The translations under genes were made by a program, and so were the position numbers. Of a DNA stretch of 64,000 nucleotides, positions 41,005-61,945 are shown in pieces. The notes under the pieces are model-generated. The model had not been told where the DNA came from. It saw nothing but the letters and a program-made list of their open reading frames with translations, and did no database searches. This DNA comes from a virus: IMG/VR virus record IMGVR_UViG_3300026488_000010. The stretch is one strand, 5' to 3'. The stretch's first letter is position 1, and each line of letters begins with the position of its first letter.

Positions 41005-41784
41005 TTATCCTATCTTTTTATTATACTCTTTTAAGAATTTTAATAATTCATGATCTTTAAAATTATCCCATGCTCGTATATCTTTATCCAAACACGCGCT
41101 AAAGTTTGAAGCATCTTTATCATTTGATTGACCATAACCTCTATATCCATCTAATCCTGATATAGAGTTTTCAGATGCTGGTATATTAGAAAGCATATTT
41201 GCAAGCTTTCTAGAATTACCTGTTTGATCTTGAATAAATTCCCAAAACATTAAATTATATGCTTGTTTGACATTTCGTAAATATTTAAAATCAATAGCTT
41301 CTTGTGCTGTACACATTTCATACTTAACTTTGTTATTAAATTCAAAATAGTGACCATACATTTTTCTAACAAAAGATGTATGTATAGCATCTCCACCAAG
41401 CACTATATACTTTGAATTTTTAAAATCTTCTGATGCTGTTGTAGCATTTAAAAATTCGGGTGAGATAACAATTTTTAATTTAGGGTATTTAGTATTCAGT
41501 ACTTCGAGGATCGTACTATTGATTACGATAACGCCTTCATATTTTTTATAAGAAAGAGTGTCCAATATTTTGATTAAAATTGATAGATCTTGACCATCAT
41601 CTGTTGTTGGTGTAGGTACAGCTACAAATATAATATCAGCTTTCATAGCATCATTTGATGTTGCACTATTAAATGTTTTAAGTTTAGGTGATTCATCAAA
41701 ACATAGAACTGAATTTAATAAACCATCTGATACACTATTATATATTGCTGAACCTACAACACCCATTCCTATAATTGCAATCAT
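41005..41784 (-). CDS. ugd: UDP-glucose/GDP-mannose dehydrogenase family (short form)
   Basis: IGMGVVG Rossmann motif, IFVAVPTP, INSTI, SPEFL, FKYLRN, GYG...ACLDKD catalytic Cys; lacks the usual C-terminal domain. Confidence 0.85.
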   Translation of the reverse strand: MIAIIGMGVVGSAIYNSVSDGLLNSVLCFDESPKLKTFNSATSNDAMKADIIFVAVPTPTTDDGQDLSILIKILDTLSYKKYEGVIVINSTILEVLNTKYPKLKIVISPEFLNATTASEDFKNSKYIVLGGDAIHTSFVRKMYGHYFEFNNKVKYEMCTAQEAIDFKYLRNVKQAYNLMFWEFIQDQTGNSRKLANMLSNIPASENSISGLDGYRGYGQSNDKDASNFSACLDKDIRAWDNFKDHELLKFLKEYNKKIG

Positions 41785-42758
41785 TACTGTTCTCCTATAA
41801 TATGATCAAGAGATTCATTATAAGCCTCTTCACTTTCTAATACCTCTAATGGTCTAATATGATCTCTAATATTTTCAAGTATTTCTTGAACAGAATACAT
41901 CCCAATATCTGCATCAGTTCCTTCAAATTCTAAAATTCTATTTTTAATTATACCATTATCCTCATGCATTAGAGCATATTCAATATCAGTTTCGAATACA
42001 TCATTTATTAATTTTAACAGTGTTATGACATCAATAGTATTATCATCATTTTGTGAACCAATATTAAAACATTGTTTATTGTTAATATTATTTATAAGAT
42101 TAATTCCAATTGGTATTATTTGATCAATAGCATCTCTAATATCACAATAGTTTCTGATACCATTGTTTGTAATTACAACGTCTCTATTTTTAAGAGCAGC
42201 ATTAATGAATGTTGGTACAACCATTCCTGGTGTATTTTGACCCGGACCTACAACATTAAAAAATCTTACTACTGCTGATGGATATTGTCCGCTATGGAAT
42301 AGAAACTCTCCATGTACTTTTGCGGCAGCATATGACCATCTTGGTGAATCGGATGGTTTTTTAATACTAAAAGGTGTTTCATCATTAATTGATTGTTCAC
42401 CAAATACTTCAGATGATGATGCATATATGATTGGTGTATTGAATTTTCTACCAATGTAATCCAAGTTTGAATTAATTTTTGAACTAACTCTAAATGTATC
42501 TCCAGAATTTGCAATTATGTTTGATACACCAATAGGTGACGCTAAATGATATATCAGATCAAAATTTTTAAATATATCAATATCTTCTGAATACATGATA
42601 ATTAAATTAATTTTATGTATTTTAATATCTTTATTTATAATTGTTGAATCATCATTGATATCGCAACCTTCGACCATATGTCCTAAAGACGCTAATTTAT
42701 TTGCAAGATGTGATCCAATAAAACCATTAATTCCTGTTATAAAAATCTTTTTTTTCAT
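41784..42758 (-). CDS. NAD-dependent epimerase/dehydratase (UDP-glucuronate decarboxylase-like extended SDR)
   Basis: ITGINGFIGSHL, IYHLASP, YASSSEVFG, SYAAAK (YxxxK), RFFNVVGP. Confidence 0.85.
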   Translation of the reverse strand: MKKKIFITGINGFIGSHLANKLASLGHMVEGCDINDDSTIINKDIKIHKINLIIMYSEDIDIFKNFDLIYHLASPIGVSNIIANSGDTFRVSSKINSNLDYIGRKFNTPIIYASSSEVFGEQSINDETPFSIKKPSDSPRWSYAAAKVHGEFLFHSGQYPSAVVRFFNVVGPGQNTPGMVVPTFINAALKNRDVVITNNGIRNYCDIRDAIDQIIPIGINLINNINNKQCFNIGSQNDDNTIDVITLLKLINDVFETDIEYALMHEDNGIIKNRILEFEGTDADIGMYSVQEILENIRDHIRPLEVLESEEAYNESLDHIIGEQ

Positions 42759-42760
42759 AA

Positions 42761-43546
42761 TTATTCCTTTATGATATACTGCAACACTAGTGAACCTCTA
42801 GTTTGAAAACTAGGAGATAGTGCCATCAATTTTATAGTTTCCTTTTCTGTATTTCTAACAACTTCTACAACATTACTTAACTCATCAATTACCTCAAAAA
42901 CAACCTCACCTGGAAAGATTAATTGATTGATATCTCGTTTAAAATTAATAAATCCTGTTTCTAAACAATGCATTGATTTTAATTCATTATCTGGACAAGA
43001 ACACTGATTGGTTTTTTCTTTAATGAAATAATCAACTAATGATCTAACATCTTCAATTGCTTGTTCGAGTTCTCTAGAATTATTTAATGTTTGCATGCCA
43101 CTAAATTCATATGTAATACCAATCTTTCCATACTGATTAACATAGTCTTTTATAGTTCCACCTTTTGAAAAACGAGTTGCATACTCAACGCCTGACTCAT
43201 GACATATACTTGAAATTGTTGAACAATTTAAACCTTTATCGATTAAACAGAAGTTTGCACATCTATGAGAATTGTGAATATCTATAACGACATCAAATTC
43301 TGATACTTCTTCTTCGATTTTTTTGATACAATCATTATATGTTATTTCTTCGGTAAATGATCTATTTAAATCTTTTGTGTGAAGTTTTTGGACTTCTCGA
43401 GTGTTTGTCTCCAGTCCTGATTGGTTTAAAAATGGTATAACTTTTACATTTGGAGTATTTTCATAATATCCTTTTAAATATAAACCTGCTTCTACAGCCG
43501 AATGTTCATTTCCGTGAGTTCCCGAGATGATTAATACTTTTTTCAA
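42761..43546 (-). CDS. Succinylglutamate desuccinylase/aspartoacylase (M14) family hydrolase
   Basis: GTHGNE (HxxE), DLNRSF, VVIDIH, C-terminal biotinyl-like segment. Confidence 0.85.
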   Translation of the reverse strand: MKKVLIISGTHGNEHSAVEAGLYLKGYYENTPNVKVIPFLNQSGLETNTREVQKLHTKDLNRSFTEEITYNDCIKKIEEEVSEFDVVIDIHNSHRCANFCLIDKGLNCSTISSICHESGVEYATRFSKGGTIKDYVNQYGKIGITYEFSGMQTLNNSRELEQAIEDVRSLVDYFIKEKTNQCSCPDNELKSMHCLETGFINFKRDINQLIFPGEVVFEVIDELSNVVEVVRNTEKETIKLMALSPSFQTRGSLVLQYIIKE

Positions 43547-43772
43547 TTTGATTCCTTGTTATTATTGTTTTTTGTGATTCTTTTGTTATTGACCATTGAT
43601 CAATAAATTTCATTTGATTAGTCATGGGAAATGACAACTTTTTTAAAGTTGAACACATGTTCCATGATTCTTTTAATTCTTCATATATATCTTCAATATA
43701 TAATATTGAAGATTCGAATGCGCTAATATAATCTAAATCCAATTCCTGTCTTGGTATATTAATCGTAATCAT
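43506..43772 (-). CDS. Hypothetical protein
   Basis: 88-aa ORF; overlaps the downstream start by 41 bp. Confidence 0.4.
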   Translation of the reverse strand: MITINIPRQELDLDYISAFESSILYIEDIYEELKESWNMCSTLKKLSFPMTNQMKFIDQWSITKESQKTIITRNQIEKSINHLGNSRK

Positions 43773-43781
43773 ATTAATAAT

Positions 43782-44525
43782 TTATGATACAGATGATGCG
43801 AAATCAATTGCTGCTTGTTTTGCTTCATCATCAGTATTGATAATGTACTCACCTTTACCATACTCTTCTGGATACTCGTACCAATGATTTGTATCATATG
43901 CTTCTCGACCTTCTTGTTTTCCGAAGAAATCTATTCTAGTAATAATATTGATTCCTAGAATAGTTGGATCAGGATCATGATATGTTTCTTCGAGCACTGA
44001 TGGTTCTGTTAAAGTTTTATCAGAAGCATCAGAAGTATCAGAATCTGGAACATCATTATCTCCATATGTGTAATACCCATCAGGATTTGGAACATCTTTA
44101 TTAATTGATTTGATTATATAGTTCGTACCATACTCATCATCTACACCAACATCATGTGATACCCAATCCATCATAGATGATTCAAAATTTTCTTTAGTGT
44201 CTGGATAATATCCTGAGTCTCCTTTTTGCACAGAGTCTCCAATTTCGAATCCATATATTGCTCGATGACTCCAACCATAATATTTACCATCATCTGATTT
44301 TCCAAGAGAATGTGTTATTAAATCATTGATTTGATATTTTAATAGGAAATTATATGTGTCGTGAATAATATCATCATTATCCACACAAAGATAATGATTA
44401 TCTTCTTTATGCATCCAGCACATACCAAAGTCTGTTCCATATGCATCTATATAATGCACTACCTCAAAATTCTTTTCAAAAATATTTTTTAATTGTTGAA
44501 TATTTTCTTTACGTTTCTTTTTCAT
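43782..44525 (-). CDS. Hypothetical protein (YGWSHRA..GFEIGD motif, acidic insert)
   Basis: ATG 44525 with AAGGA RBS (ORF track starts at 44540). Confidence 0.55.
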   Translation of the reverse strand: MKKKRKENIQQLKNIFEKNFEVVHYIDAYGTDFGMCWMHKEDNHYLCVDNDDIIHDTYNFLLKYQINDLITHSLGKSDDGKYYGWSHRAIYGFEIGDSVQKGDSGYYPDTKENFESSMMDWVSHDVGVDDEYGTNYIIKSINKDVPNPDGYYTYGDNDVPDSDTSDASDKTLTEPSVLEETYHDPDPTILGINIITRIDFFGKQEGREAYDTNHWYEYPEEYGKGEYIINTDDEAKQAAIDFASSVS

Positions 44526-44544
44526 ATTGTTTCCTTTCATTATA

Positions 44545-44607
44545 ATTTCTATACTAACTCACTTCTATCTTTATCGATAAGGATCGTTTTTGAGTTAGTA
44601 TAGAAAT
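44545..44607. repeat. 63-bp element with perfect 16-bp terminal inverted repeats and internal B' palindrome
   Basis: atttctatactaactc ... ctatctttatcgataaggatcg ... gagttagtatagaaat. Confidence 0.9.
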
Positions 44608-44614
44608 AGGGTAA

Positions 44615-45202
44615 TTATAATATCCATTTCTTGATTTCATCGATACTTTTAATGTTTGAATTATTATAATTGTAACATATATTTTTTAATTTCATTGCTT
44701 TAAGAGTTTGGTGAATAAATTTATGTATTGTTAAATATACGATATTCTTTGAATCTAACGATTTTCCATCTTTTATAGCTTTAATTAGTCCATGATTTCG
44801 ATCTCTTGAATATACTCGAGGAATTAATAAACACACATATGATGCAGCACTATGCCGAACTTCAACTGTGCAATTCTTTTTTAATTGTTCATATCTATTT
44901 TTATGTTCCATCATAATACCTTTCGTTGATGCATAAATTAATTTTGCTTTTTGTTGATTGGCAAATGCTATACAATTTCTAGTTCCAATTTCCAAAGATT
45001 CTAATTTATGTAAATTTGAATCATTATTTGGGCTTCCGAAGTGAAAAATATAACTAAAATCGTGTTGAAAATATTTTTCAAAATTTAAAATATTTTCAAC
45101 AACTCCTTCAAATATCTCAACATCATAATCTTGAACAAGAATATCGAGCAAGTGACTACCTAAGTAACCTCTTGCTCCAATTAATAATATTCTATCTTTC
45201 AT
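44615..45202 (-). CDS. Short NAD-dependent epimerase/SDR
   Basis: LIGARGYLGSHL, IFHFGS, IYAST, YEQLK (YxxxK), IPRVYS. Confidence 0.8.
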   Translation of the reverse strand: MKDRILLIGARGYLGSHLLDILVQDYDVEIFEGVVENILNFEKYFQHDFSYIFHFGSPNNDSNLHKLESLEIGTRNCIAFANQQKAKLIYASTKGIMMEHKNRYEQLKKNCTVEVRHSAASYVCLLIPRVYSRDRNHGLIKAIKDGKSLDSKNIVYLTIHKFIHQTLKAMKLKNICYNYNNSNIKSIDEIKKWIL

Positions 45203-45647
45203 AATCTTTACCTAACTCAATATAATATATTCCATTTTTATCATCTAAGTGATTAAGCAATCTTTCTAATTCTTCTAAATTTTTAGGTGCTAAAAATTCG
45301 ATGTTCAACATTCGACATATATCTTTATTGTTATCTATTGTGTGTCCTGCACCAAGCTTAGAATAGCCTATCTTACCCGCGTTAAAAATGATTATTTTAC
45401 CTTTATCAACAAAAGGCACACATGAATATTTTAATTGCTCTATACGATGCATTATGAAGCCTGCTACACCGTAAACGTATACTGACTCTCCTTGTGATGC
45501 TAGTCCACCTGCAATATTTAAAAGATTTGCTTCACCTAATCCAGTGTTTAATACTTTAGCATCTGTTGCAAATGCGTAAATATTAAACATATCTGCATGT
45601 AATAAGTAATCATTTTCTGTTAAATGTTCTGCTATATGTCTTCGCAT
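45192..45647 (-). CDS. Transketolase pyrimidine-binding-domain subunit
   Basis: VLNTGLGEANLLNIAGGLASQG...YGVAGF...RIEQLK...LGAGHT. Confidence 0.8.
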   Translation of the reverse strand: MRRHIAEHLTENDYLLHADMFNIYAFATDAKVLNTGLGEANLLNIAGGLASQGESVYVYGVAGFIMHRIEQLKYSCVPFVDKGKIIIFNAGKIGYSKLGAGHTIDNNKDICRMLNIEFLAPKNLEELERLLNHLDDKNGIYYIELGKDYER

Positions 45648-46378
45648 AATGTTACCTCTCTAATATCTTCTAATTGTTTATAATGCCAATGTACTGGATC
45701 TTTTATCATTTCTATTACACCATCACCTTTGATAGTCTCAATTAAAAATACTATTGGTTTTTGCATATTATCTAATATGCTTTTAACGTTTGCAGCATTA
45801 AATTTTGATTCTTCAATCATAAATGGGATCCATCCAGCATTATAAAACATATCATATACACCATTTACAGTCATGCCTAAAATATCTGTCGTGTTTCCTG
45901 TGAGTTGTGTTCTATTATAATCAACTGTTAATACAATATTTTGTTTATGCTTACCAATATATTGTATTGCTTCTAATGTTGGCCCCATTTGAAGAGCAGC
46001 ATCTGATATATTACAATATGTTCGTTTCCCATTATAACTTATACCACTCGCAAACCCTAAAGCATTACCCAAAGTTTCTTCACCATAATCTACGAAGTCT
46101 ATTTCATCATGTTTGACACCATATGATAAGTTATCAATATTTAACATATAATAATAATGCCAAATGATATAATATGCTTGAGCTCCAAATGGTTTGCCGA
46201 TTACGATATTCCATTCATATGGTTCAATCACAGCGGAAGACCCTGAATCATCATATCTAAATAATTCATGTGTATAGTGAAGCATTGATAGTGCACTAGG
46301 TATATGACTCAACTTTTTATCTATAGAATATTGTAATACTCTATTTAATATTGTTTTTAATTCCATTTTATATTCCAT
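45632..46378 (-). CDS. Transketolase N-terminal TPP-binding subunit
   Basis: SHIPSALS, ETLGNALGFASG, SDAALQMG...EA...VDYN (GDG..N-like), TIKGDGV, WHY. Confidence 0.8.
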   Translation of the reverse strand: MEYKMELKTILNRVLQYSIDKKLSHIPSALSMLHYTHELFRYDDSGSSAVIEPYEWNIVIGKPFGAQAYYIIWHYYYMLNIDNLSYGVKHDEIDFVDYGEETLGNALGFASGISYNGKRTYCNISDAALQMGPTLEAIQYIGKHKQNIVLTVDYNRTQLTGNTTDILGMTVNGVYDMFYNAGWIPFMIEESKFNAANVKSILDNMQKPIVFLIETIKGDGVIEMIKDPVHWHYKQLEDIREVTLCEDI

Positions 46379-46455
46379 TATAATTTTTGTTTATATTTTT
46401 TGATTCTTCTTCGTTTTTAAAAAATATAGTGTAATCTTCATTATAGTTACATCTA

Positions 46456-47250
46456 TTATTCATATTCATCCTTTATCAATTCTAAAATTTCATCTAGGTC
46501 ATCTTCTATTTGGCACCATTCTTGTTCGTTTCTACCAATTTTATATCCAGCTAATGTTCTAGGATTTATATCTGTAAGTTTATGATGAAATTTTTGAGAC
46601 GTTGAGTATTCATATTCATAGTCATCAGCATTAAATTCAGTGTTGTCAAATAATGATTTATTTTTGAACCAACACGCTACTAGGTATTGTTTAGACTCAT
46701 CTAAAACGGCTTCACCTATCATCTTGAAATGCTCATTATAAAGCGGGCAATATGCGCATTCATATGAATATAATAGAATGTATTGACTCATATTTAAAGA
46801 GCTATAATCATTGTCTATGAGCTCTACACGAGGCACTATATAATCAAATTCTTTTTCAATATCTTTATACACTGAAAAATCTTTTATATCAAATCCAGTA
46901 ATTGAATAGATATATGTATATTTTGGATATAACTTTTTAAGTTGATGTATAATTGCTCTATTTGCAATTATAATTGAGTTGCCTTCTCTATGGTTATCTT
47001 TCAATACTTCGTGCGTTATACTATCGTTAAAATTGATTTTATAATTAGTTAAAGCGAAGCTAATGTTAATTCCACTGCTAGGTGAGTCAACAGTATTAAC
47101 TCGTCCACCGTTCCAAGAACTGCCAACAATACCATCATAAACTTTAATATCGATATCAAGCTCTTTTAATATTTTTCTATTTTTTAATTTCCATAACTTG
47201 TATTGTTTTATATATTTAAAATATGGTACTTCAATGATTAAACTGCTCAT
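46456..47250 (-). CDS. U32-family-like Fe-S protein (short)
   Basis: SWNGGRV, ECAYCP...H...CWF and GYKIGR motifs resembling the U32 Cys pattern and KxxGR motif. Confidence 0.55.
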   Translation of the reverse strand: MSSLIIEVPYFKYIKQYKLWKLKNRKILKELDIDIKVYDGIVGSSWNGGRVNTVDSPSSGINISFALTNYKINFNDSITHEVLKDNHREGNSIIIANRAIIHQLKKLYPKYTYIYSITGFDIKDFSVYKDIEKEFDYIVPRVELIDNDYSSLNMSQYILLYSYECAYCPLYNEHFKMIGEAVLDESKQYLVACWFKNKSLFDNTEFNADDYEYEYSTSQKFHHKLTDINPRTLAGYKIGRNEQEWCQIEDDLDEILELIKDEYE

Positions 47251-48092
47251 ATGAGATCCTTATAATTTTCGCGCATATATTTAGAAACGTTTTCAAAAAA
47301 CCAATAAGAGTAATATAAGTACTCAGCTGCTTCATTTGAAATATCATTATCTTTTAATCTATAAATAATTTCTTTGGGCCTAGTTTTAACTTTCATATAC
47401 ATTTTAATAAAATCTTCTTCGCTTTGTATATGTACTAAATCTTCATTATCCGCGAGTATATAGAACATATCTACATCATACGCATAAAACTGTTCAAGAG
47501 TCTTATCGTAGCGTATACTGTAGTTATTGAAGTTGTTTAGCCATAGTCCTTTATTATAACACTCAATAAGAAATTTTATAAATGATTGGATTATAAAATC
47601 ATCAAACACTAAGTTGTTGAGTTTTGATATAGTATATGGTTTAACATAAATATATTTATCATCTTGCCTATATGTTCCAAACTTCATACAAATATAGTTA
47701 TAATAATTGTCATAACCTCTTTTGTTTTTAACTTTAACATACTCGCCATCGTTATTAAAATAATTATACTCATAGTTGAAGTAATTTAATTCTTTTGTTT
47801 TGTATCCATTTTTAAAGAAATGTATCTTATCTAATGCTGTTTGTTTTTGACTGTAGTTATAAAAATTAAAACCATCTTTATATGAATCCAAATAGAAATC
47901 ATCTATTGGATCAACATTTTCTAAACGCAATGAAACTGATTGAATTAAAAATTTTTTAATGTTACTATTCAAACACATTCCTAAAACGTTCTGACAAAAT
48001 ATTGTATGATCATCAGGTATTATTTGTACCTTTTTTATTTCCATTATTTTTTCCATTTTAAACCTTTTTGATCTTTTTGTATTTATCTCCAT
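47247..48092 (-). CDS. Hypothetical protein, possibly kinase-like fold
   Basis: KGLWLNNFNNYSIRY...FYAYDVD resembles a degenerate catalytic loop/DFG region. Confidence 0.35.
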   Translation of the reverse strand: MEINTKRSKRFKMEKIMEIKKVQIIPDDHTIFCQNVLGMCLNSNIKKFLIQSVSLRLENVDPIDDFYLDSYKDGFNFYNYSQKQTALDKIHFFKNGYKTKELNYFNYEYNYFNNDGEYVKVKNKRGYDNYYNYICMKFGTYRQDDKYIYVKPYTISKLNNLVFDDFIIQSFIKFLIECYNKGLWLNNFNNYSIRYDKTLEQFYAYDVDMFYILADNEDLVHIQSEEDFIKMYMKVKTRPKEIIYRLKDNDISNEAAEYLYYSYWFFENVSKYMRENYKDLI

Positions 48093-49071
48093 AATATATG
48101 CTACAGAATTTATGATTACATGTTAAGCAATCTTTGAATTGTGTAATAGGATCAAGTGATAGATTAACATCAAACATTACATCTCTATCATATAAAAAAT
48201 CCATATCACATCTATAGACTTTTCCATTTGGTGCAAGTAGTAAAGTGTTTTTACCAGCTGAGCATTCATAACCTTTAAAGTTTAAATATCCATGCATTGT
48301 TATATATTCAAATGATACCGATTTATCACCTGTTGAATCTGTTAGGATAAATGGTGTCTCATCTGGATCAACTGTTATATATTTATAATATTTTGAACTT
48401 AAGAACCATTCTGATTCTTGCAAGATGGTTCTAACATATAAAGGAACTTCTAAACTATTAAACATCTTTATTGTTTTAACATGTTCATCAATACCTTCAC
48501 GCGTAATCATATAAGTCATTACATCCATAACTCTTAATTTCTTTAAGAAGTTTATTCTTTTAACTATACCAGCCATTTTAGTAAATTCTTTATGATATGA
48601 GAATGATATAACATATTCACAACCAGCTTCTGTTAGCTCGTCATGGTTCTTTTGGTACTCATGTAAATCCCATTTCATACCATTTGATTGGATAAGAGTT
48701 CTTACCTTCTTTGTGGGATATAATTGATTAATTTTTATAATCATCTCTGTTAGCTTAGGATGCATTGTTGGTTCACCACCATATACAAATAAGAATATTT
48801 CATCCTTTTCATCTGTTCCAAACTTATCTAACATTTTTAAATATTTATCAAATGTTTCATCTGATATATGTTTAGTACTATTATCATGGAAGCAACAATA
48901 AGAACAATCGAAGTTGCAATTATCTGTAGGTTTAAATTCAATTATAAACTTATCAGTGTACTCCAAAGGTTTTAAATAATCAAAATCTTTTACGGTAAAC
49001 TGATTTTCTATAAAGTTTACAAATACTGCATCATCTTTGTTGTCTCCGCTAAATTTATCATATAGGCTCAT
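48058..49071 (-). CDS. Radical SAM protein with C-terminal twitch/SPASM-like domain
   Basis: CNFDCSYC (CxxxCxxC), GGEPTMHP, CSAG...YRC...C..C. ATG 49071 has an RBS (ORF track starts at 49077). Confidence 0.9.
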   Translation of the reverse strand: MSLYDKFSGDNKDDAVFVNFIENQFTVKDFDYLKPLEYTDKFIIEFKPTDNCNFDCSYCCFHDNSTKHISDETFDKYLKMLDKFGTDEKDEIFLFVYGGEPTMHPKLTEMIIKINQLYPTKKVRTLIQSNGMKWDLHEYQKNHDELTEAGCEYVISFSYHKEFTKMAGIVKRINFLKKLRVMDVMTYMITREGIDEHVKTIKMFNSLEVPLYVRTILQESEWFLSSKYYKYITVDPDETPFILTDSTGDKSVSFEYITMHGYLNFKGYECSAGKNTLLLAPNGKVYRCDMDFLYDRDVMFDVNLSLDPITQFKDCLTCNHKFCSIYYGDKYKKIKKV

Positions 49072-50759: not shown

Positions 50760-50768
50760 ACAATTCCT

Positions 50769-51770: not shown

Positions 51771-51857
51771 TCATCATTTATAGTTATATATTATTGGATC
51801 AAAATTTATTAGAACGTACACCATATTGTATTTTTTAAAAAATTTTTTGAATATATA

Positions 51858-54228: not shown

Positions 54229-55226
54229 GAATTAACCTTATAATGTAAAACATTTTTATATTTTATATCATCCTTTGGTACTAGCACAGCATCAACATTA
54301 TTAAATTCAACACCATCACAAATATATAAATCAGAACATTTAAAACATTCTGCTTTTTTTACATATGTTACTAATCTGTTATTTTTCGCGATATCAAAAA
54401 GTTCTTCCTTTGATGGAATACTCTTTGGGACACCATTAAATGTTGAAATATTCCAATCACTATCATCAAATATTTGCTGATATGTTCCATAACAATATTG
54501 TTCATAACCTCTCATAAAACATAAAGGTATATATCGAACATTAATTTTAATATCATATTTTTTTATTATATCAATAAAAGATTTTATTGCAATCGATGTT
54601 TCTAAATAATTGATATGCTCATTAGCATCTGACCATGAATTTACAGGTAATATATTTATCTGATCAGGCATTGTATCTATAATAAACTTTGAATAATTAA
54701 TCATATCATCTAAAAATAATTCATTCACTGTACAATTTATTCGAACTTCCATTTGTAATTGTTGTGCATTCTTAATGGCTTTTTTAATCTTGCAAAAAGC
54801 ATTCTTTGACTGTACAATCTCATCATGTTTATCTTCAAGATTGTGGACACTAAATAATATATCAGTCAATCCCATAAAATTCGATTTGATTATAAACTCT
54901 TCGTTGCTGAACATTGATCCATTCGTAACTGTAGATATTTTCATATGCTTTGGAATATAGTTTAATATATCAAACCAGTTAGTATGTATTGATGATTCTC
55001 CACCTGATAATTCAATCTCTGTAAATCCAGCAAGTACTATGGAATCTATATCATTTTTAATATCTTCAAAAGATTTTTTTAAATGTAATTGATCTATATA
55101 ATAACAAAAAGAACATTTATAATTACAGTTTGTACCTGTATTTAATTTTGCTCTTTTATTATGGATAAGTGCTGGTGATTCTTTAGCATCAGGTAAAAAC
55201 ATTTTATTATATAACATATTAATCAT
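54225..55226 (-). CDS. Radical SAM protein (HxsC-like architecture)
   Basis: CNYKCSFC, LSGGE, VTNG, YIPLC, C-terminal CFKCSDLYICDG. Confidence 0.9.
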   Translation of the reverse strand: MINMLYNKMFLPDAKESPALIHNKRAKLNTGTNCNYKCSFCYYIDQLHLKKSFEDIKNDIDSIVLAGFTEIELSGGESSIHTNWFDILNYIPKHMKISTVTNGSMFSNEEFIIKSNFMGLTDILFSVHNLEDKHDEIVQSKNAFCKIKKAIKNAQQLQMEVRINCTVNELFLDDMINYSKFIIDTMPDQINILPVNSWSDANEHINYLETSIAIKSFIDIIKKYDIKINVRYIPLCFMRGYEQYCYGTYQQIFDDSDWNISTFNGVPKSIPSKEELFDIAKNNRLVTYVKKAECFKCSDLYICDGVEFNNVDAVLVPKDDIKYKNVLHYKVNS

Positions 55227-56115
55227 TTAAAATATCCTTTATAATATTAATTATTTTATCATCATCTTGTAATTGTAAATCTGTATGTTCTAAATCTAAA
55301 ATACGATTTCGTAAACCTAAATCAATATCTAAATAATCTATAACTTCTTGAGTGTATTGAACATCAATTCCAAAATATTTACATTCAACAATAAATCTAG
55401 GAGAACAATCCCATTTCGCATCTATCGGTGTGTAAACATATTTATTAAATCTTTCAAATAAATTATCAACAGGTGCTCTAAGATTTTCGACATTTTTATA
55501 GTTTCCAAAATTTGATATAACTATTTTATCACCTGGAATACGATCAATAGACTCTTGACTAATATATCGACAATTTTCAGTAGCATATATTAATGTTTTA
55601 TTATCATGTCGTGTCGGCTTCTTCAATCTTTTAAGATCAATCATCTTAATATAATTTATATGTTTAGATGTTTGATATGCACTCTGGTCTAATAGAATAT
55701 GGTAGTTTGGTTTATCAATATCTATAACCTTTTTATCCCCACATGCAAACATAAAAACATTATCCATTAATAATGTACAATGTTTTTGAATATTGGTTAT
55801 CGCACCATCTGTAAAAAATATATTAGTGCCTCTCAATAATTTTGGCGAATCTAAAAAAATGGTGTTTGATAATAGTTCTTCTAATTCATTATCAGATATC
55901 AGGTACTTATCAAGTATTGCTTTTGTAAATGTTTTTTTATCTAAATCGCACATCAATATTGCAACAGAAATGTGCTTTTTCAAAAGGTTATAATAATCAA
56001 TAACTTCAAAAGTGTGCCCACATATACCGTGCTTAACGGTGCTCCAGGAATATGTTAAATATAAATTATATTCATTTAAAGTTTGTATGCTTGATTTCAT
56101 GCTTGATTTTTTCAT
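55219..56115 (-). CDS. Hypothetical protein, possibly GT-B-fold-like (paralog of 56702-57502)
   Basis: HGICGHTFEVIDYY N-terminal motif; WDCSPRFIVECKYFG C-terminal motif. Confidence 0.45.
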   Translation of the reverse strand: MKKSSMKSSIQTLNEYNLYLTYSWSTVKHGICGHTFEVIDYYNLLKKHISVAILMCDLDKKTFTKAILDKYLISDNELEELLSNTIFLDSPKLLRGTNIFFTDGAITNIQKHCTLLMDNVFMFACGDKKVIDIDKPNYHILLDQSAYQTSKHINYIKMIDLKRLKKPTRHDNKTLIYATENCRYISQESIDRIPGDKIVISNFGNYKNVENLRAPVDNLFERFNKYVYTPIDAKWDCSPRFIVECKYFGIDVQYTQEVIDYLDIDLGLRNRILDLEHTDLQLQDDDKIINIIKDILND

Positions 56116-56702
56116 ATTATCTCCGAATTAAATATGTCATTTGTGTCACCAATTAAATGTTTTATATCTTGTGGTCGTATATATCGTTTATATTCTTTTA
56201 AGATTTTAAATATATTTTTTTTACTTAAAAAACTTTTTGATCCAATATTTAATGCTGCGTCTAATCGCACATAAATGTTTTTAGATGCAGCAAAATTAAT
56301 AAAGGTTTCTAGATTTTTGATATTGTTATTATCTATTACTACAGTGTATTGTACTTTATGATCAGGATCGTCAACAATATCAACATCTATTAAATTTTCA
56401 GAACAGTGATAAATATATGAATCAATTAAATGATAATATATATTATATCTTTTAAGGAACATACCATTAGTTGTAACATTTATTATACTTTTTTTATCAA
56501 TCAATATATCAAATATTTTTCGCATTTGAGTATCATCTACTAAACCAGGTTCCCCACCTGTAATCGTAACTTTTGAATATTCTTTAATACTTTTTAATGA
56601 ATTGAGAACTTCATTATCATTGATTGATCGCTTATTGTGTGTGTCAACTATACAATACTGACACTTCCAGTTGCATTCAAATGTGATAGGAACACAATAC
56701 AT
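56112..56702 (-). CDS. Minimal radical SAM protein
   Basis: CNWKCQYC, ITGGEPG, TTNG; only 196 aa. Confidence 0.9.
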   Translation of the reverse strand: MYCVPITFECNWKCQYCIVDTHNKRSINDNEVLNSLKSIKEYSKVTITGGEPGLVDDTQMRKIFDILIDKKSIINVTTNGMFLKRYNIYYHLIDSYIYHCSENLIDVDIVDDPDHKVQYTVVIDNNNIKNLETFINFAASKNIYVRLDAALNIGSKSFLSKKNIFKILKEYKRYIRPQDIKHLIGDTNDIFNSEII

Positions 56703-57502
56703 TAGGTGCTCCTAGCAGTCATAGCAACTATCATTTTATCTGATTCATCTATTGTATAATCTTTTAGACCATTTCTTTTAATATCATTATATCTGATTAT
56801 AGTTGAGTCAATAATATCTGTTTCATTCTCTATTATTAATTTAGTATCATAATAAAATGCTTCTGGAATTATTCTATTATTTGTATCGAGCATCTGATGA
56901 ACATATAATATAGTGCAGCATTCTTCAAATATTGATATTGATTTATCAAGATGTTTTAATATAACATTTTTTAAATTATATTTTTTTGTGTACTCTTTAA
57001 TATTTAATTGTTCTGGTACTCGACTAGATATGAATGTTTTAGTTCCCGATGATTGAATATCTTTCATAATATCAAAATTTAACTTTAACTTACATTTAAT
57101 ATCAAAATCTTGATAATCATATTCACCATAAAATATTACTTGTTGTTTCTTCGGCATCATATAACTATGAGACTCATTACTATACACATGCATAGGGCAT
57201 TGTAAAAAACAATATACCTCGTGATATGTTCTGAGATCTAATATTAATGCTTTATTTATTCTGATATTATATAAAGATGTTGTCGTAGTACTTTTGAACT
57301 TTTTAAATAAGTGCTCAATGTTTTTATATTTATTAGAAAACGATCTTTTAAGATCGTTTAGATCTTGATCATTTATATTTACTAATAAAAATTCTAAGTC
57401 TGGATCGTTTTGTGATAAATATGCAAAATATTCAAAAGCATAATAGACTGAACCATTATACTTTTGATGAACATACCATTTGTATATTACTACATTTTTC
57501 AT
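56702..57502 (-). CDS. Hypothetical protein, possibly GT-B-fold-like
   Basis: YNGSVYYAFEYF and DTNNRIIPEAFYY mirror the motifs of 55219-56115. Confidence 0.45.
   Translation of the reverse strand: MKNVVIYKWYVHQKYNGSVYYAFEYFAYLSQNDPDLEFLLVNINDQDLNDLKRSFSNKYKNIEHLFKKFKSTTTTSLYNIRINKALILDLRTYHEVYCFLQCPMHVYSNESHSYMMPKKQQVIFYGEYDYQDFDIKCKLKLNFDIMKDIQSSGTKTFISSRVPEQLNIKEYTKKYNLKNVILKHLDKSISIFEECCTILYVHQMLDTNNRIIPEAFYYDTKLIIENETDIIDSTIIRYNDIKRNGLKDYTIDESDKMIVAMTARST
57338..57359. repeat. B palindrome embedded in a CDS
   Basis: aaacgatctt-tt-aagatcgttt; 21/22 match to the intergenic consensus. Confidence 0.6.
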
Positions 57503-57514
57503 TTTTTTATTTTT

Positions 57515-58120
57515 TTATTTTGAAGACGTTAACGTCTTAATGATTTCAGAATAAATCTCCAGGACCTGTTCTTGTGATGTTGCATCTTTCATATCTCTAT
57601 AAAAAGTCATGTATAACTCTTCTAAATAAGAGCTACGAGCAATAACATCACGAGCATTTAAATATTCTTCAAGTTTATCAATTAACAATTCATCTTCTGT
57701 TTCCAAGATTTGCAGATAAACTTCTTCTTTATTATCATCATGGATAAAATAACCTTTATCACATAAAGTATTATTAATATTAATATATTGATACATCATG
57801 AGACCAGAAGTGTTTGCTTGTTGGTGCGATACCATTTGGCGAGCTTTTTTCATATATATCATTTTCTGAGATGATAGATCATCAGTATCTGGTTCAATGA
57901 TAATTAAATCATGTTCCTGTACATCAATACCCTGATAATCCGAAACGATTCTTACAAGTTTATTAGCATTCATTGCGATTCTAATAGCGACATCTGCTGT
58001 TTGACTCAAACCTAAGAATCTATTATTTTTTTCAAAATCTTGTGTTAAAGAGCTACTAATATACTCAACTTCATAATATTTGCCGTGGTCAATTACCGCA
58101 GCTACACTGTATACCATCAT
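57515..58120 (-). CDS. Hypothetical protein, possible fibre assembly chaperone
   Basis: 201 aa; acidic helical C-terminus (MKDATSQEQVLEIY) resembling tail-fibre assembly proteins; directly downstream of the S74 protein. Confidence 0.4.
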   Translation of the reverse strand: MMVYSVAAVIDHGKYYEVEYISSSLTQDFEKNNRFLGLSQTADVAIRIAMNANKLVRIVSDYQGIDVQEHDLIIIEPDTDDLSSQKMIYMKKARQMVSHQQANTSGLMMYQYININNTLCDKGYFIHDDNKEEVYLQILETEDELLIDKLEEYLNARDVIARSSYLEELYMTFYRDMKDATSQEQVLEIYSEIIKTLTSSK

Positions 58121-58130
58121 TTTTTATTCC

Positions 58131-58976
58131 TTAAAAATCTAATAGATCTTTTAATAGATCATATCTTACACCGTAAAAACCAGTTACTGTTTCTACAACA
58201 TATTCTGCTAATCCTAATTCAATTAGCTCTTGAGCCATTACCCCAACTTGTTTACCAGAATCTAAAATTAATTCTGAATATTCATCTTTATATTCATACT
58301 CGTAGATTGGAACATATTTACCATCAAGTTTTCTAGTACATATATATGTAATATTTTTCTTTAATCTCATATCAGAGTAATGACACCCACAATCAGTATT
58401 ACACACACATTGAGAATTACATGAACAATCAGAATTACATAAACATTGTTTGGATATTTGTTCAAACTTTGTAATGATTTCATTGTGATAAGACATTTTA
58501 ATTTTTGTATTTCTATCAATACTTGATACATTCGATGTTACAGACATATATGTATTTAAAGTATTGATAACTTCAGCAACCGCTTGCCAATGTGATAACG
58601 ATATCTTTGAACCACTTGTTGCATTAAATGATGCTACTGTTGCATAAAAGTTGCCATTACCACCAGACATTGACCAATTCTCTTGTAAAGAATTTACTGC
58701 AAATTTTAAAGCATTAATATCTTTATGACTAATTTTGATATTAGTTCCAGATGCAAAAGATAATGAAGGCCAACCTGTGGTATTTGTACCATGATGTTGA
58801 GTACATGTAATATTAACTTCATATGTATCCTCAACATAGTTTGTACCATGTCCTTTAGTTACAGTCCAAGCTGATGCGGGACTTACTCTCCCAGCATCAA
58901 CCCTTCCTGTAACCGCACTAGGTGTTTTTGTATGTGTCGGTGTACTTGTACTTGTAATACCATCATTAAATCCCAT
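58131..58976 (-). CDS. Fibre-like protein with Cys-rich tract and C-terminal peptidase S74 intramolecular chaperone
   Basis: CLCNSDCSCNSQCVCNTDCGC (58445-58383), then YSDMRLKKNI...YEYEYK...GVMAQEL...YGVRY (S74). Confidence 0.85.
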   Translation of the reverse strand: MGFNDGITSTSTPTHTKTPSAVTGRVDAGRVSPASAWTVTKGHGTNYVEDTYEVNITCTQHHGTNTTGWPSLSFASGTNIKISHKDINALKFAVNSLQENWSMSGGNGNFYATVASFNATSGSKISLSHWQAVAEVINTLNTYMSVTSNVSSIDRNTKIKMSYHNEIITKFEQISKQCLCNSDCSCNSQCVCNTDCGCHYSDMRLKKNITYICTRKLDGKYVPIYEYEYKDEYSELILDSGKQVGVMAQELIELGLAEYVVETVTGFYGVRYDLLKDLLDF

Positions 58977-58986
58977 TATAATTCCT

Positions 58987-60117
58987 TTATTTTCGTAGTT
59001 TTAAATATCTTTGAACAGTTCTATCAATTAAACCAAAAAGTTTATACACTTCACATAAATCATCTTTAGGATCATGATAAGCTTCTTCATAACTTTTATC
59101 AGATACTTCAACATTTATAATTGGGCATTGATAACATACAGTAGCTGAACAGCCTTTACAATGTTCGGGTAATATCAATAATTCTTTATGTTTTTTGTGA
59201 GAAGTCATTACAGACTCAGCAATATTATCAACACTACCAATTATGAATTCTTCTTTTTTATCTACATATAGTGCACCATGACATACTAACATATTACCAT
59301 CTAAATCAATATTTGCAATATTGATTCCAGCTGTACACATTGCTCGATCACCTGTACCAAACCATGTGAATAAAAATTTACCATTTTCTTCAAAGTATTT
59401 AATTTCTCTTTTTGCCAATTCTGTAAAATCTTTTTCTAATTTATCTAATAACTTTTGTTCTATTAAATATTTGTTAGTGTATTCTATAGTAGGTGACCAT
59501 GAGATCCAAGGTAATTCTTTAGATAATTCATAATAATGTTCCCAATGTTTAACAATATTTGGTAACTCTTCAACAGGTAAAGTTCCTTTAATTGAGAAAT
59601 TAATTTCTGGAAAATTCGAACTTAAATATTTAATTGAGGACAATACTCGTTGTTGAGTGCCTTTACCTGAATGGTCCACTCGATACTTATCATGACCAAT
59701 ACCATCATAAGATACTTGAAATGAAAATCTCGAATCATCTATACCATATTCTCGAAATTTATAAATTATTGATGATATAGTTAAAGCATTTAATCCATTA
59801 GTGTAAAAAAAGAAATCAATAGGGTCATTTTTATATGCTTCCAATACTTCAAATATTAATTTTGTATTTAGAGTAGGTTCCCCACCCCAGAAGTCCAATG
59901 TTATTCCATTATATTCTTTTTGGAACTCTGCATCAATGAGCAAATCATTAATTATTTTAATAATATCTAGATCTTGTTTTTTTGTGTTTTGAAGTTCTTC
60001 TCCTTCAAAACAATAAGTACATGCCATATCACATTTCTGAGTAGTTGTGACTTCGAGTGCAAAATATTTTTTTGTAGGCAATGGTCCTGCTTTATTTATC
60101 ATAGGATCATTTATCAT
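58987..60117 (-). CDS. Radical SAM/SPASM maturase
   Basis: CDMACTYC, FWGGEPTLN, VSYDG, SPASM CTAG...CHG...CKGC...CYQCP...C. Confidence 0.9.
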   Translation of the reverse strand: MINDPMINKAGPLPTKKYFALEVTTTQKCDMACTYCFEGEELQNTKKQDLDIIKIINDLLIDAEFQKEYNGITLDFWGGEPTLNTKLIFEVLEAYKNDPIDFFFYTNGLNALTISSIIYKFREYGIDDSRFSFQVSYDGIGHDKYRVDHSGKGTQQRVLSSIKYLSSNFPEINFSIKGTLPVEELPNIVKHWEHYYELSKELPWISWSPTIEYTNKYLIEQKLLDKLEKDFTELAKREIKYFEENGKFLFTWFGTGDRAMCTAGINIANIDLDGNMLVCHGALYVDKKEEFIIGSVDNIAESVMTSHKKHKELLILPEHCKGCSATVCYQCPIINVEVSDKSYEEAYHDPKDDLCEVYKLFGLIDRTVQRYLKLRK

Positions 60118-60377
60118 TATTGTTCACCAAAAATATTAGCTAAAATTGTATCATATGTTTTATCATCTAATTTTGTTTTATCAATTGCTGCATTGTTTGC
60201 AGACACAGTTAATGTTTTAAATGCCTCTGTTGTAAAATTTAAAATATTTTTTGATGTTTGTTCAAACCCGGCAGCCTTAAATAATAAACCGGCCTCTAAT
60301 ACATGTTGTATCGCACCCTGAATCAACTGCTCATGAGTTACTTCTACTTCTTCTACTTCTTCTATCTCATCATTCAT
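60117..60377 (-). CDS. Small acidic hypothetical protein
   Basis: 86 aa, translationally coupled; N-terminal EEV repeats. Confidence 0.55.
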   Translation of the reverse strand: MNDEIEEVEEVEVTHEQLIQGAIQHVLEAGLLFKAAGFEQTSKNILNFTTEAFKTLTVSANNAAIDKTKLDDKTYDTILANIFGEQ

Positions 60378-60913
60378 TATATTTTTCCTCTTAATGTTTC
60401 TTGTATTAAATCTAAAGTGTATTTATCTTGTTTAATTATTATATGTTGTATATCATTAATTTCTAAGAATTGTTTAATCTTATTATCTAATTCTTTCGCT
60501 TCAACAATATCTTGACTTCTACCACCTTCAAAGAATCCATATAATGCTGAACGTTCTAAAAAAATATTTAAATTGTTATATCTATTATATTGTTCAATCA
60601 TAAAATCATTGAATTCAACATGTGCAATATGATTAGCATCACAATAATTTAGTCCCATGACAAATGGTGAATCATGAACTGCTACTTCAACGCAACGATC
60701 CAATCTCTTCATACGACGATGTTGCTCACCTGCAACATGTAACTGATCATTTAATAATTCATATGATTCATCATATATTAACTCTTTAGCATATTCTTGG
60801 GTCATATCAGCATCTATACCTTTCTTTTTTAATAAAGATGTTAACTCCATTGCAAGTGTGGATTTACCAACACCTGGACCGGCAAAGAAATTTATATGTA
60901 ACGCATTTTTCAT
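60377..60913 (-). CDS. P-loop kinase/ATPase (NadR/AAA_28-like)
   Basis: Walker A AGPGVGKST, QEYAKEL, VHDSP. Confidence 0.8.
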   Translation of the reverse strand: MKNALHINFFAGPGVGKSTLAMELTSLLKKKGIDADMTQEYAKELIYDESYELLNDQLHVAGEQHRRMKRLDRCVEVAVHDSPFVMGLNYCDANHIAHVEFNDFMIEQYNRYNNLNIFLERSALYGFFEGGRSQDIVEAKELDNKIKQFLEINDIQHIIIKQDKYTLDLIQETLRGKI

Positions 60914-60937
60914 TATTTATCCTTCTACTATCTTTTA

Positions 60938-61945
60938 CTATCTTTTACTATCTTCTACAAATAGTTTAATTAAATGTGTGCCTGTTTCTTTTAATAGTAA
61001 TTTTAACTCAGCATCAATACCTTTATATATTGTACATAATTCCGAAATTACTCCACCATTTTTTACTTGTTCAAAAATACATCCTTTATGACATGTGTTT
61101 TTAATTTTACACGAATTGCATTGATCTAAATAATCATTTCCAAAATTCTTTTTAAATTTTAAATAAACACTATCATCTCTTAAAAATCTTTCACATGGTA
61201 TTATATCTTTACTCTTTGGAGAAATCGCAAAATATTTAATACCTGCTTGACAATTAGTTTTTTGATACCCAGTATAAGAATATTCAATTATTGGACTAAG
61301 ATATGTTTTAATTAATCCAGGTAATTGATTATAAGTTGTGCATTGCTTGATCATTGGTATCATATAATTAATATAATTTCGAAAATCAATTATAAAATAT
61401 TCTGATTGTAAAGCATTCCATGTACCCATGTCACGGACAAGTGTTACATCAATAGTTAATAATTCTGAATCAAACATCTTTTGAAAACTTTTTTCTAAGT
61501 TTATAAGATAATTACTATGCAATTTAAAATCACCACCAACAACCATACAATGTATTCTAGCATTATGTGATAGATATTCTTTAGCAAAAACTTTTTTTGT
61601 ACCTCTATGAACTTCTTGATTTTCACCATCATGCGATATTGTTATATTTACTTTAGGATTATTTATTATATCAATAACCCTAGAATTATAAATTGTACCA
61701 TTTGATGTTATATTTATTTTTTTACAATTATCAATTTGTAATTTCTTGATGATATATTCAACATCATCCAAATTTAAAAATGGTTCCCCACCAAATATAT
61801 CAAATACAAATTCTTCATGTTTAATTGATAATAATAATTCATCAAAATCTGATAACGATATTTTATTTTTATTATTCACATCAATATCACAATATGTACA
61901 ATTCATATTACACTGCTCAGATAAAACATAATGATACGTCTTCAT
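60938..61945 (-). CDS. Radical SAM/SPASM protein
   Basis: CNMNCTYC, FGGEPFLN, ISHDG, SPASM CQAG...PCERF...CNSCKIKNTCHKGC...C. Confidence 0.9.
   Translation of the reverse strand: MKTYHYVLSEQCNMNCTYCDIDVNNKNKISLSDFDELLLSIKHEEFVFDIFGGEPFLNLDDVEYIIKKLQIDNCKKINITSNGTIYNSRVIDIINNPKVNITISHDGENQEVHRGTKKVFAKEYLSHNARIHCMVVGGDFKLHSNYLINLEKSFQKMFDSELLTIDVTLVRDMGTWNALQSEYFIIDFRNYINYMIPMIKQCTTYNQLPGLIKTYLSPIIEYSYTGYQKTNCQAGIKYFAISPKSKDIIPCERFLRDDSVYLKFKKNFGNDYLDQCNSCKIKNTCHKGCIFEQVKNGGVISELCTIYKGIDAELKLLLKETGTHLIKLFVEDSKR

Follow-up and report, generated by a model that had tools for sequence, protein, structure and literature searches.

Thioether stapling by enzymes has been described in small antimicrobial peptides and in very few cellular proteins. 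NxxcB, for example, joins Cys to Asn in NxxC repeats. The S74 domain of known proteins aids the assembly of a fibre or spike, after which it releases itself by a cut at the Ser of an SDxRxK motif. The radical S-adenosylmethionine (SAM) enzyme PapB links Cys to the carbon beside an Asp or Glu carboxylate, and even to the C-terminal carboxylate (PMC12373016), and CrpC of Methanococcus voltae puts ranthionine links on CrpA, a 28.8-kDa protein suspected of metal binding (PMC13692751). Among viruses, the Campylobacter phages CP220 and CPt10 were reported to have 11-12 radical SAM genes, the role of which is unexplained (Timms et al., PMC2853527). Here we describe positions 41005-61945 of a 64,000-nucleotide stretch of viral DNA (IMG/VR record IMGVR_UViG_3300026488_000010; hereafter the window), an island with seven radical SAM genes, one of which is directly followed by the gene of a fibre-type protein with a dense Cys array.

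We read the island as a composite cassette that matures a virion protein, most likely through thioether cross-linking of the fibre-type protein, and we give this reading a probability of roughly 0.55. Its core would span 54225-61945, and the short dehydrogenase gene at 41005 appears to belong with the core. Genes are named here by their first position. The four that bear most directly on the reading are these.

60938-61945, minus strand: radical SAM/SPASM enzyme A, from Pfam, with CX3CX2C at residue 12, CX2CX5CX3C and extra auxiliary-cluster Cys
58987-60117, minus strand: radical SAM/SPASM enzyme B, PapB/QhpD-like by NCBIfam matches, with all 7 SPASM Cys
58131-58976, minus strand: fibre-type protein of 281 residues, candidate substrate, from Pfam Peptidase_S74, the array and its conserved position
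57515-58120, minus strand: conserved partner protein, with a small N-terminal beta/alpha domain and then a helical bundle in its model (predicted local distance difference test score, pLDDT, 90)

The array of 58131 has the form (CxCNxx)4, occupies residues 178-200 (nucleotides 58377-58445), reads CLCNSDCSCNSQCVCNTDCGCHY and holds both NxxC and CxxD spacings. Directly after it, at residues 201-206, stands SDMRLK, a Ser-Lys motif of the SDxRxK type, and the Peptidase_S74 domain at residues 201-259 (nucleotides 58200-58376) exceeds its Pfam cut-off, with 35.1 bits against 22. The domain is predicted to be a self-cleaving chaperone that cuts at S201. The PHROG match of the protein is to a 'virion structural protein' family.

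All seven radical SAM genes that had been proposed in the initial annotation (48058, 51858, 52706, 54225, 56112, 58987 and 60938) exceed the cut-off of Pfam PF04055, with 35-52.6 bits against 29.5, and each of their products has an N-terminal CX3CX2C, which occurs in no other open reading frame (ORF) of the window. Two of them, 58987 and 60938, also have the seven-Cys SPASM pattern (CX9-15GX4C ... CX2CX5CX3C ... C) that goes with two auxiliary [4Fe-4S] clusters; the Pfam SPASM model gave no match at E <= 0.01 in the island's radical SAM proteins. In enzyme B the SPASM Cys are C261-x12-G-x4-C279, C320-x2-C-x4-C-x2-C331 and C355, and its 3 + 7 cluster Cys are invariant among 25 homologs with identity down to 30%. 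Enzyme A has CX2CX5CX3C and three more Cys. Both align over their full length with the NCBIfam model of PapB, enzyme B at 95 bits and enzyme A, below threshold, at 65 bits, with QhpD and the CXXX-repeat and SCIFF maturases as further matches. Despite alignment over nearly the whole profile, both miss the equivalog cut-off of the PapB family NF047865, which is 340 bits; they are thus best described from their profiles as PapB-like enzymes outside the PapB family, with enzyme B a candidate thioether-forming maturase.

Relatives of the island were collected from IMG/VR, where a single-protein query found nothing and an alignment-based query yielded 80 loci; these were examined with 10 kb of flank on each side by tblastn of all island proteins. 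In public metagenomes 58987 has 88 homologs, with identity down to 26%. When an array was defined as a window with at least 8 Cys per 30 residues, it was found in the next gene on the same strand after a PapB-like SPASM radical SAM gene in 34 of 43 loci. Three CP220-type loci have the array 3 kb upstream of the enzyme gene, and several of the remaining loci have somewhat less dense arrays in the same next gene. This pairing of enzyme and array is the most robust feature of the island. In most related loci enzyme B is preceded by a homolog of enzyme A, and homologs of the partner protein 57515 were found in 33 ORFs of related loci.

The eight array Cys are nearly invariant while the remainder of the protein diverges (17 orthologs aligned). 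In close relatives the array reads C[IV]CNSDCxCNxVCxC[HN]xDCxCNY, in distant relatives it consists of 4 to more than 9 heptads of CNYCTC[DN], and its end always lies 0-2 residues before the SDxRLK site of S74 or before the stop codon. A helix of the form ..HW..L...YN..R.. is conserved before the array. The S74 domain is encoded by a separate downstream gene in three loci and is missing altogether in many relatives. In locus L026, two tandem array genes (11141-11716 and 11729-12289) follow one PapB-like radical SAM gene, and an S74-type SDIRLK start is present after the second array gene only. Heptad-type array proteins (L019, L021, L026, L029, L031 and L032) have within their first 20 residues a motif MAC(T/G)GH(T/S)NSC..H.GY, a conserved Cys/His sequence that may be a second metal or modification site; 58131 does not have this N-terminal MAC(T/G)GH motif.

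A conserved Cys array could also be a structural metal- or Fe-S-binding motif of a trimeric fibre, similar to the iron sites that His-x-His forms in fibre tips of the T4 type or to the Cys-x-Cys runs of metallothionein, with the radical SAM enzymes acting on other substrates. Cys-x-Cys repeats with much Asn, Ser and Asp are reminiscent of metal-thiolate proteins, and the variation in repeat number, from 4 hexads to more than 9 heptads, is like that of a modular structural element. CrpA, as mentioned above, is itself a suspected metal binder (PMC13692751). However, the SPASM gene adjoins the array gene across very divergent phages, and the best full-length matches of the enzymes are maturases of cysteine peptides; cross-linking and metal binding would in any case be compatible. 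We consider it improbable that the array serves for metal binding instead of cross-linking.

That cultured phages are related to the island is clear from CP220, in which we recounted 11 radical SAM genes. The initial annotation had pointed to multi-radical SAM clusters in some large Campylobacter phages, and the homology is real, but in CP220 the counterparts are scattered across the genome. Homologs were found there of 54225 (42-44% identity), 45192 (39%), 55219 (35%), 41005 (30%), 58987 (28%), 60938 (22%) and 57515 (44% over 64 residues), and also of 45632 and 41784. The CP220 protein gp140, annotated as 'hypothetical' with 'Repetitive region x.1-x.6', contains CLCDCNY(CTCDCNY)5, and its gene lies 2.2 kb upstream of that of the PapB-like gp136. 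Both gp140 and the product of gene 3-9 in phage IBB_35 have a (CNYCTCD)6 array, encoded in each case 2.2 kb from the PapB-like radical SAM gene, and their homology to the small heptad-type proteins extends beyond the array (E 1e-19). The IBB_35 protein is AEF56812, which we equate with gene 3-9 because it is the tenth coding sequence of contig 3; it has 534 residues and a computed mass of 60,317 Da. Gene 3-9, given as 60,318 Da, is listed among the proteins of purified virions identified by electrospray tandem mass spectrometry, with a coverage of 2.6% (PMC3322345 Table S2). This detection is the sole experimental evidence that a member of the array-protein family is in the particle, and it is thin. 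The pairing of enzyme and array is also present in the cultured phages CPt10 and CP21, besides CP220 and IBB_35, which opens the idea to direct testing by mass spectrometry.

The architecture of 58131 also resembles that of a ribosomally synthesised and post-translationally modified peptide (RiPP), with the body as leader, a C-terminal core, a removable follower and SPASM maturases. The array protein might accordingly be a large RiPP-like product that is released in or from the infected cell as a toxin, signal or counter-defence factor, with S74 as a self-removing follower; many relatives do without S74, and the island contains a Tad6-like counter-defence gene. Against this stand the S74 domain, which is typical of fibres and spikes, the 'virion structural protein' assignment of 58131, the position of the cassette next to fibre genes both here and in L001, the closest relative, and the presence of the IBB_35 homolog in purified virions. 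A released product seems very unlikely to us. The proposal of the initial annotation that the island decorates virion fibres is partly supported, in that there is now a concrete candidate substrate, the array protein, with a relative in IBB_35 virions.

For thioether cross-linking of the fibre-type protein, the following course can be proposed. 58131 would be made with its C-terminal S74 chaperone, and self-cleavage would leave ...CxCNxxCxCNxxCxCNxxCxCHY as a free C-terminal tip. Enzymes 58987 and 60938 would then use SAM-derived radicals to join array Cys to carbons of neighbouring Asn, Asp or other residues, in thioether links of the ranthionine or sactionine type, as made by PapB, QhpD, NxxcB and CrpC. 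The protein 57515 probably presents or chaperones the substrate; the enzymes have no N-terminal recognition domain of their own. The GT-B-fold glycosyltransferase-like pair, the GT2 glycosyltransferase, the other radical SAM enzymes and the U32-like Fe-S proteins might carry out further tailoring (sugars, hydroxyls or other radical chemistry), and the dehydrogenase, the short-chain dehydrogenase/reductase (SDR) proteins and the transketolase-like enzymes might supply modified sugar donors. The product would be a virion appendage with a tip that is chemically stapled and perhaps also glycosylated. Glycosylation or hydroxylation of the array protein is less certain than its cross-linking, and the roles suggested for the GT-B pair, GT2, 54225, the short radical SAM enzymes, the U32-like proteins and the donor genes follow from linkage alone.

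The genes to which these further roles are given, together with the remaining members of the island, are listed below.

60377-60913, minus strand: P-loop AAA_28 kinase-like protein, a variable member, from Pfam
60117-60377, minus strand: acidic protein of 86 residues, with no family match and a weak homolog in L001 only
56702-57502, minus strand: GT-B-fold glycosyltransferase-like protein, paralog of 55219 (hhalign 99.1%), in 24-26 loci
56112-56702, minus strand: short core-only radical SAM enzyme of 196 residues, from Pfam
55219-56115, minus strand: GT-B-fold glycosyltransferase-like protein, from AlphaFold2 model, Foldseek and VIA
54225-55226, minus strand: radical SAM enzyme, HxsC/MoaA/viperin-like and not SPASM, from Pfam and NCBIfam, with C-terminal CX2CX5C
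53617-54228, minus strand: GT2 glycosyltransferase, catalytic domain only, Pfam 29.8 bits against 23.3
52706-53635 and 51858-52691, minus strand: two radical SAM enzymes, each with a C-terminal Cys cluster, from Pfam and NCBIfam
47247-51641, minus strand: middle block, mostly phage-specific (50769, 50013, 49058, 48058 and 47247)
within 47247-51641, minus strand: radical SAM protein 48058, with a twitch or partial SPASM motif, from Pfam and motif
within 47247-51641, minus strand: 49058, a U32-like lead from its Atlas structure
within 44615-47250, minus strand: 46456, a conserved, distant U32-like paralog of 49058 (hhalign 82%)
45632-46378 and 45192-45647, minus strand: split transketolase-like pair, adjacent and in canonical order, below the Pfam cut-offs
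from 44615, within 44615-47250, minus strand: small SDR-like protein, 20.4 bits against a cut-off of 20.9
42761-44540, minus strand: phage-specific genes for an AstE/AspA hydrolase, an 88-residue ORF and a Tad6-like protein, from Pfam, with no homologs in related loci
41784-42758, minus strand: SDR epimerase/dehydratase, Pfam Epimerase, 98 bits
41005-41784, minus strand: short Ugd-like dehydrogenase of 259 residues, Pfam NAD-binding domain only, 45 bits

At least 25 contigs of uncultured phages, with protein identities of 30-57%, show the genes in the recurring order (41005-like), 60938, 58987, array protein, 57515, 56702, 55219, 54225 and 56112, the last in one to four copies. Subsets of loci have GT2 53617, 52706, 46456, the transketolase-like pair and SDR genes downstream of this core, and the cassette co-occurs with genes of 44615-47250 in L002, L006, L010, L012, L020, L025 and L087. 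In 14 relatives the 60938 homolog is immediately preceded by a homolog of the Ugd-like 41005, so that genes from the two ends of the island adjoin there; this supports the boundaries that had been drawn for it. L001 has 10 radical SAM genes in 12 kb and shares with the window the tail-fibre gene immediately before the cassette, and ORFs with the radical SAM motif number about 4.5 per related locus in the median and up to 10. L087, a contig binned in a metagenome-assembled genome of Bdellovibrionales, has the cassette together with sugar genes; it was the sole close match among 185,579 species genomes, and the remaining cellular matches, none above 28% identity, were to generic SPASM enzymes, so that the family is essentially viral.

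Within the 10 kb covered on either side, related loci gave no homologs of 42761, 43506, 43782, 47247, 50013 and 50769, and only one weak match to each of 60117, 49058 and 51858. With 5-10 genes specific to this phage, the island is composite, made of a core, of accessory genes that travel with it and of phage-specific inserts. Conservation as a unit, which the initial annotation had named as a test of its proposal, thus holds for most of the island in at least 25 contigs, and a conserved core does exist; its idea of one dedicated pathway was overstated in view of the phage-specific genes, one of them Tad6-like. The Tad6-like, AstE/AspA and 47247-51641 genes probably joined the island later and would have roles that are separate or accessory.

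This composition raises the question of whether the region is a mosaic of independent accessory modules, gathered in a plastic region by the fibre genes, in which only 58131-61945 concerns the array protein and the sugar enzymes, glycosyltransferases, U32-like proteins and other radical SAM enzymes serve DNA hypermodification, the host envelope or host metabolism through a nucleotide-sugar or nucleoside product. Several genes are indeed phage-specific, one being Tad6-like, the CP220 homologs are scattered, and 54225 resembles the nucleotide-acting MoaA, viperin and BlsE. GT-B and P-loop kinase genes are known in phage DNA-modification pathways (PMC8989533), and the T4 alpha-glucosyltransferase (AGT) matches the 55219 model at Z 12.0. 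On the other hand, at least 20 loci keep the GT-B pair, 57515 and 54225 in a fixed order just after the array gene, 14 loci have the Ugd-like gene immediately before that of enzyme A, GT2, 52706, 46456, the transketolase-like and the SDR genes travel with the cassette, and Pfam and NCBIfam scans of the island gave no DpdA, QueC/D, aGPT-Pplase or hmU kinase families. A mosaic of this kind is in our view rather unlikely. Modification of DNA of the 7-deazaguanine type was set aside separately, as the island has no matches of the QueC, QueD, FolE or DpdA type. DNA had also been named in the initial annotation as a possible target of decoration, and no specific sign of its modification emerged from the island.

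As to the individual enzymes, 54225 has HxsC as its best NCBIfam match (64 bits) and homologs at 42-45% identity in about 20 loci, CP220 and L087; 52706 is kept in 11 loci and L087, and 53617 has homologs in 8 loci and L087. The genes of the 56112 type (about 190 residues) occur as 1-4 tandem copies in relatives such as L001, L007, L014 and L040; where there are 3-4 diverged copies, at 30-40% identity, they lie at 15222-17700 in L001 and at about 16000-18500 in L007, L009, L014 and L040. This amplification of short radical SAM genes suggests diversification of specificity. Homologs of 60377 were seen in the cassette of L001 only (50%); in L030 a weak homolog (28%) lies 3 kb downstream.

The sugar and transferase genes had been assigned in the initial annotation as Ugd, two SDRs, a split transketolase, GT2- and GT8-like enzymes and two possible GT-B paralogs, besides kinase-like proteins and an M14 hydrolase. 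The GT-B pair is well borne out. The paralogy was recovered by hhalign, and the AlphaFold2 model of 55219, built from 17 homologs, has a pLDDT of 88 and BshA as its best Foldseek match, while all of its top 50 rows in VIA are GT-B structures (Z 14.3-9.8 over about 250 residues; 6eji 14.3, PimA 14.1); on these models the GT-B fold of 55219 and 56702 can be taken as established. Pfam likewise agrees on GT2 and on the M14 hydrolase, 42761 being an M14-like zinc hydrolase of the AstE_AspA family at 45.9 bits. Of the SDRs, 41784 is clear and 44615 falls just below its cut-off. The transketolase halves are adjacent and in the right order, but both are below their cut-offs (Transketolase_N, 19.7 bits against 22; Transket_pyr, 13.2 against 27, E 0.07); their homologs travel together in L010, L025 and L087. 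The protein 41005 has the NAD-binding domain and an ACLDKD motif with a possible catalytic Cys but not the C-terminal domain that binds uridine diphosphate, and from its sequence it is Ugd-like and not a canonical Ugd.

For 49058 and 46456, membership of Peptidase U32 (PF01136), the family of UbiU/UbiV-type Fe-S hydroxylases, is a lead only. Neither protein matched Pfam even at E 5. The Atlas model of 49058 reaches a template modelling (TM) score of 0.74 against a cluster made up to 99% of PF01136, and the cluster nearest to it carries the automatic name U32; the Atlas leads of 46456 are weaker, with PF01136 shares of 12-13%, and a C..CP...H motif is common to both proteins. Atlas neighbours of the two include clusters fused to PqqD (a RiPP recognition element, RRE), to radical SAM domains and to methyltransferases, which hints that the U32-like fold is a recurrent partner of radical SAM systems that modify peptides or proteins. 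In the middle block, 50013 has a GT-A-like DxD motif only and a weak PHROG match to a family of unknown function, and 50013, 50769 and 47247 gave no Pfam match at E <= 5 and no sequence match in the PDB. The GT8-like label of 50013 and, apart from the P-loop protein 60377, the kinase-like labels thus found no confirmation. The 252-residue product of 43782-44540 (minus strand), a gene that the initial annotation did not name, scores 66 bits with Pfam Tad6, a type I Thoeris inhibitor (cut-off 27), in a match that contains an insertion, and may be a separate counter-defence gene.

The window is low in GC (24-34%), carries nearly all of its genes on the minus strand and, by PHROG matches to major head, tail sheath and tail fibre proteins, belongs to a large tailed phage. 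Megablast of the island against 50,697 phage records and tblastn with the tail sheath both gave zero matches, so that there is no close cultured relative. The island holds 27 closely packed minus-strand ORFs, the majority of which abut or overlap; the initial annotation had described the genes correctly as co-oriented and overlapping, with a count of about 24. It had also placed them between two fibre genes, with a third inside: 62158-63999 matches a tail-fibre PHROG, 58131 has its S74 domain, and 39109-40524 is fibre-like by its Ala/Thr-rich composition only. Between the latter gene and the island lies 40602-41000 (minus strand), which encodes 132 residues with one clear transmembrane helix.

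The sole gaps at the island are 61946-62157, 51642-51857, 46379-46455 and 44541-44614, the first of which is the upstream control region.

61946-62157, minus strand: upstream control region; in order from the fibre gene, a terminator-like hairpin, palindrome copies and a ribosome-binding site

Here the palindrome AAAACGATCTTT/AAAGATCGTTTT occurs in two perfect copies and one degenerate copy (61982-62003, 62096-62117 and 62031-62041). It is found phage-wide, with 19 half-site matches in the window against 2.8 expected; further sites are at 27858-27993, 29639-29660 and 57338-57359, and copies concentrate near the genes for the capsid and the homing endonuclease and in the intergenic stretch that precedes the island, with one inside gene 56702. 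The palindrome could be a family of promoters/operators or terminators. In agreement with the initial annotation, which saw no clear late promoter in the gaps, the T4-type late promoter TATAAATA was not enriched and was absent from the island gaps, and a scan for sigma-70-type promoters gave matches at the level of shuffled sequence. The homing-endonuclease-like ORF at 27997-29556 (minus strand; 519 residues; PHROG 3339, E 2.5e-120) adjoins the major head gene, and a 50% identical copy is present at the edge of L001.

Several observations weigh against thioether cross-linking as we propose it. The Cys array might merely bind metal. Every family match of the island's radical SAM enzymes lies far under the NCBIfam equivalog cut-offs, so their reaction type, and with it the proposed thioether chemistry, is an analogy. 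Five of the seven radical SAM enzymes and all of the sugar enzymes are without an identified substrate, GT-B enzymes also glycosylate DNA, as the T4 match to 55219 recalls, and several island genes have no homolog in related loci within the 10-kb flanks. No RRE domain was found; Foldseek and VIA gave only generic helical bundles for the 57515 model, a PDB profile search with it was empty, and it fits no known fold and has no RRE-like match. The island also departs from a RiPP pathway in that the substrate has 281 residues and the enzymes start at the radical SAM core, aligning only from about position 95 of the QhpD and SCIFF maturase profiles. Finally, the mass-spectrometric coverage of gene 3-9 is 2.6%, and with 534 residues and an internal array its product is unlike the small proteins with a C-terminal array.

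Radical SAM enzymes also work in the cytoplasm of aerobes, and the proposal of a micro-aerobic or anaerobic host, made in the initial annotation from its O2-sensitive enzymes, is for that reason weak. Among the carriers are phages of Campylobacter, a micro-aerophile, and contigs of unknown sample origin.

As we read it, SPASM chemistry of the RiPP type would here act on a structural protein of a virus, within an unusually large island of Fe-S and sugar genes. We found no description in the literature of radical SAM or thioether modification of phage virion proteins. As far as we can tell, the dissection of the whole island, the structural confirmation of the GT-B pair and the tie to the virion detection of gp140/gene 3-9 are new here. 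If the reading is true, a virus staples its own particle protein and devotes up to ten radical SAM genes to it, which would be a new class of virion maturation, with possible consequences for the stability of the particle and for its binding to receptors. A functional approach to the radical SAM genes of Campylobacter phages, on record since 2010 and unexplained, would then be open for the first time. More tentatively, and with the odds somewhat against it, many large phages, including Campylobacter phages, may build a Cys-ladder tip that is stapled by private radical SAM enzymes and decorated with sugars or hydroxyls. Such stapling would be natural-product chemistry in RiPP style on a virus particle protein, with the short radical SAM families as a diversifying toolkit, and would account for the 11-12 radical SAM genes of CP220-type phages.

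Compared with described systems, the island is closest in its enzymes to PapB/PapA (freyrasin), CteB/SCIFF, NxxcB and the CXXX-repeat system TIGR04115, which likewise have a radical SAM core with a seven-Cys SPASM region. The PapB-type systems also share a short-period Cys repeat with Asp or Asn a few residues past each Cys, and adjacent genes for enzyme and substrate. The score here is 95 bits against an equivalog cut-off of 340; unlike in those systems, there is no N-terminal RRE, and the context is viral. Their substrate is a peptide of 40-60 residues with a leader, whereas an island-type substrate is a virion-type protein of 150-530 residues; and in place of a leader protease and exporter, which are missing here, there is a self-cleaving S74 follower.

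CrpC/CrpA and QhpD/QhpC of quinohaemoprotein amine dehydrogenase are similar in that a SPASM enzyme makes thioether links on a whole protein with a C-terminal Cys repeat. For CrpC/CrpA the likeness extends to an accessory protein that may help, CrpB, and to a beta-helix-like repeat predicted for the substrate. CrpC, unlike the island enzymes, carries an RRE, and with its family, TIGR04463, 58987 scores no more than 39 bits; the CrpA repeat, of 17 residues with C-X-X-Q/D, is also unlike the island array. The substrates of CrpC and QhpD are cellular proteins of unknown or enzymatic function, whereas that of the island is virion-type.

The His-Xaa-Ser system (HxsA-D; TIGR03977/TIGR03978), itself uncharacterised to our knowledge, likewise has a pair of SPASM and non-SPASM radical SAM enzymes beside a short-repeat substrate. 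Both 58987 and 60938 match HxsB, but all scores are far below cut-off, and the island repeat is based on Cys and not on His-x-Ser. The S74 chaperones of endosialidase-type tailspikes and fibres likewise have the Ser-Lys motif at the junction; unlike in known S74 proteins, cleavage here would expose an invariant Cys array tied to radical SAM genes.

The nearest viral systems are the Firehammervirus phages CP220, CPt10 and IBB_35, with 11-12 radical SAM genes, homologs of island genes and an array protein near a PapB-like gene. In CP220 the parts are scattered, the array is internal to a protein of 534 residues, S74 is missing, and identities are 22-44%. Its central module, with five radical SAM genes and a glycine amidinotransferase (PMC2853527), differs from the island cassette: Pfam found no amidinotransferase in the island, and the CP220 homologs of island genes lie mostly outside that module, at 70-77 kb.

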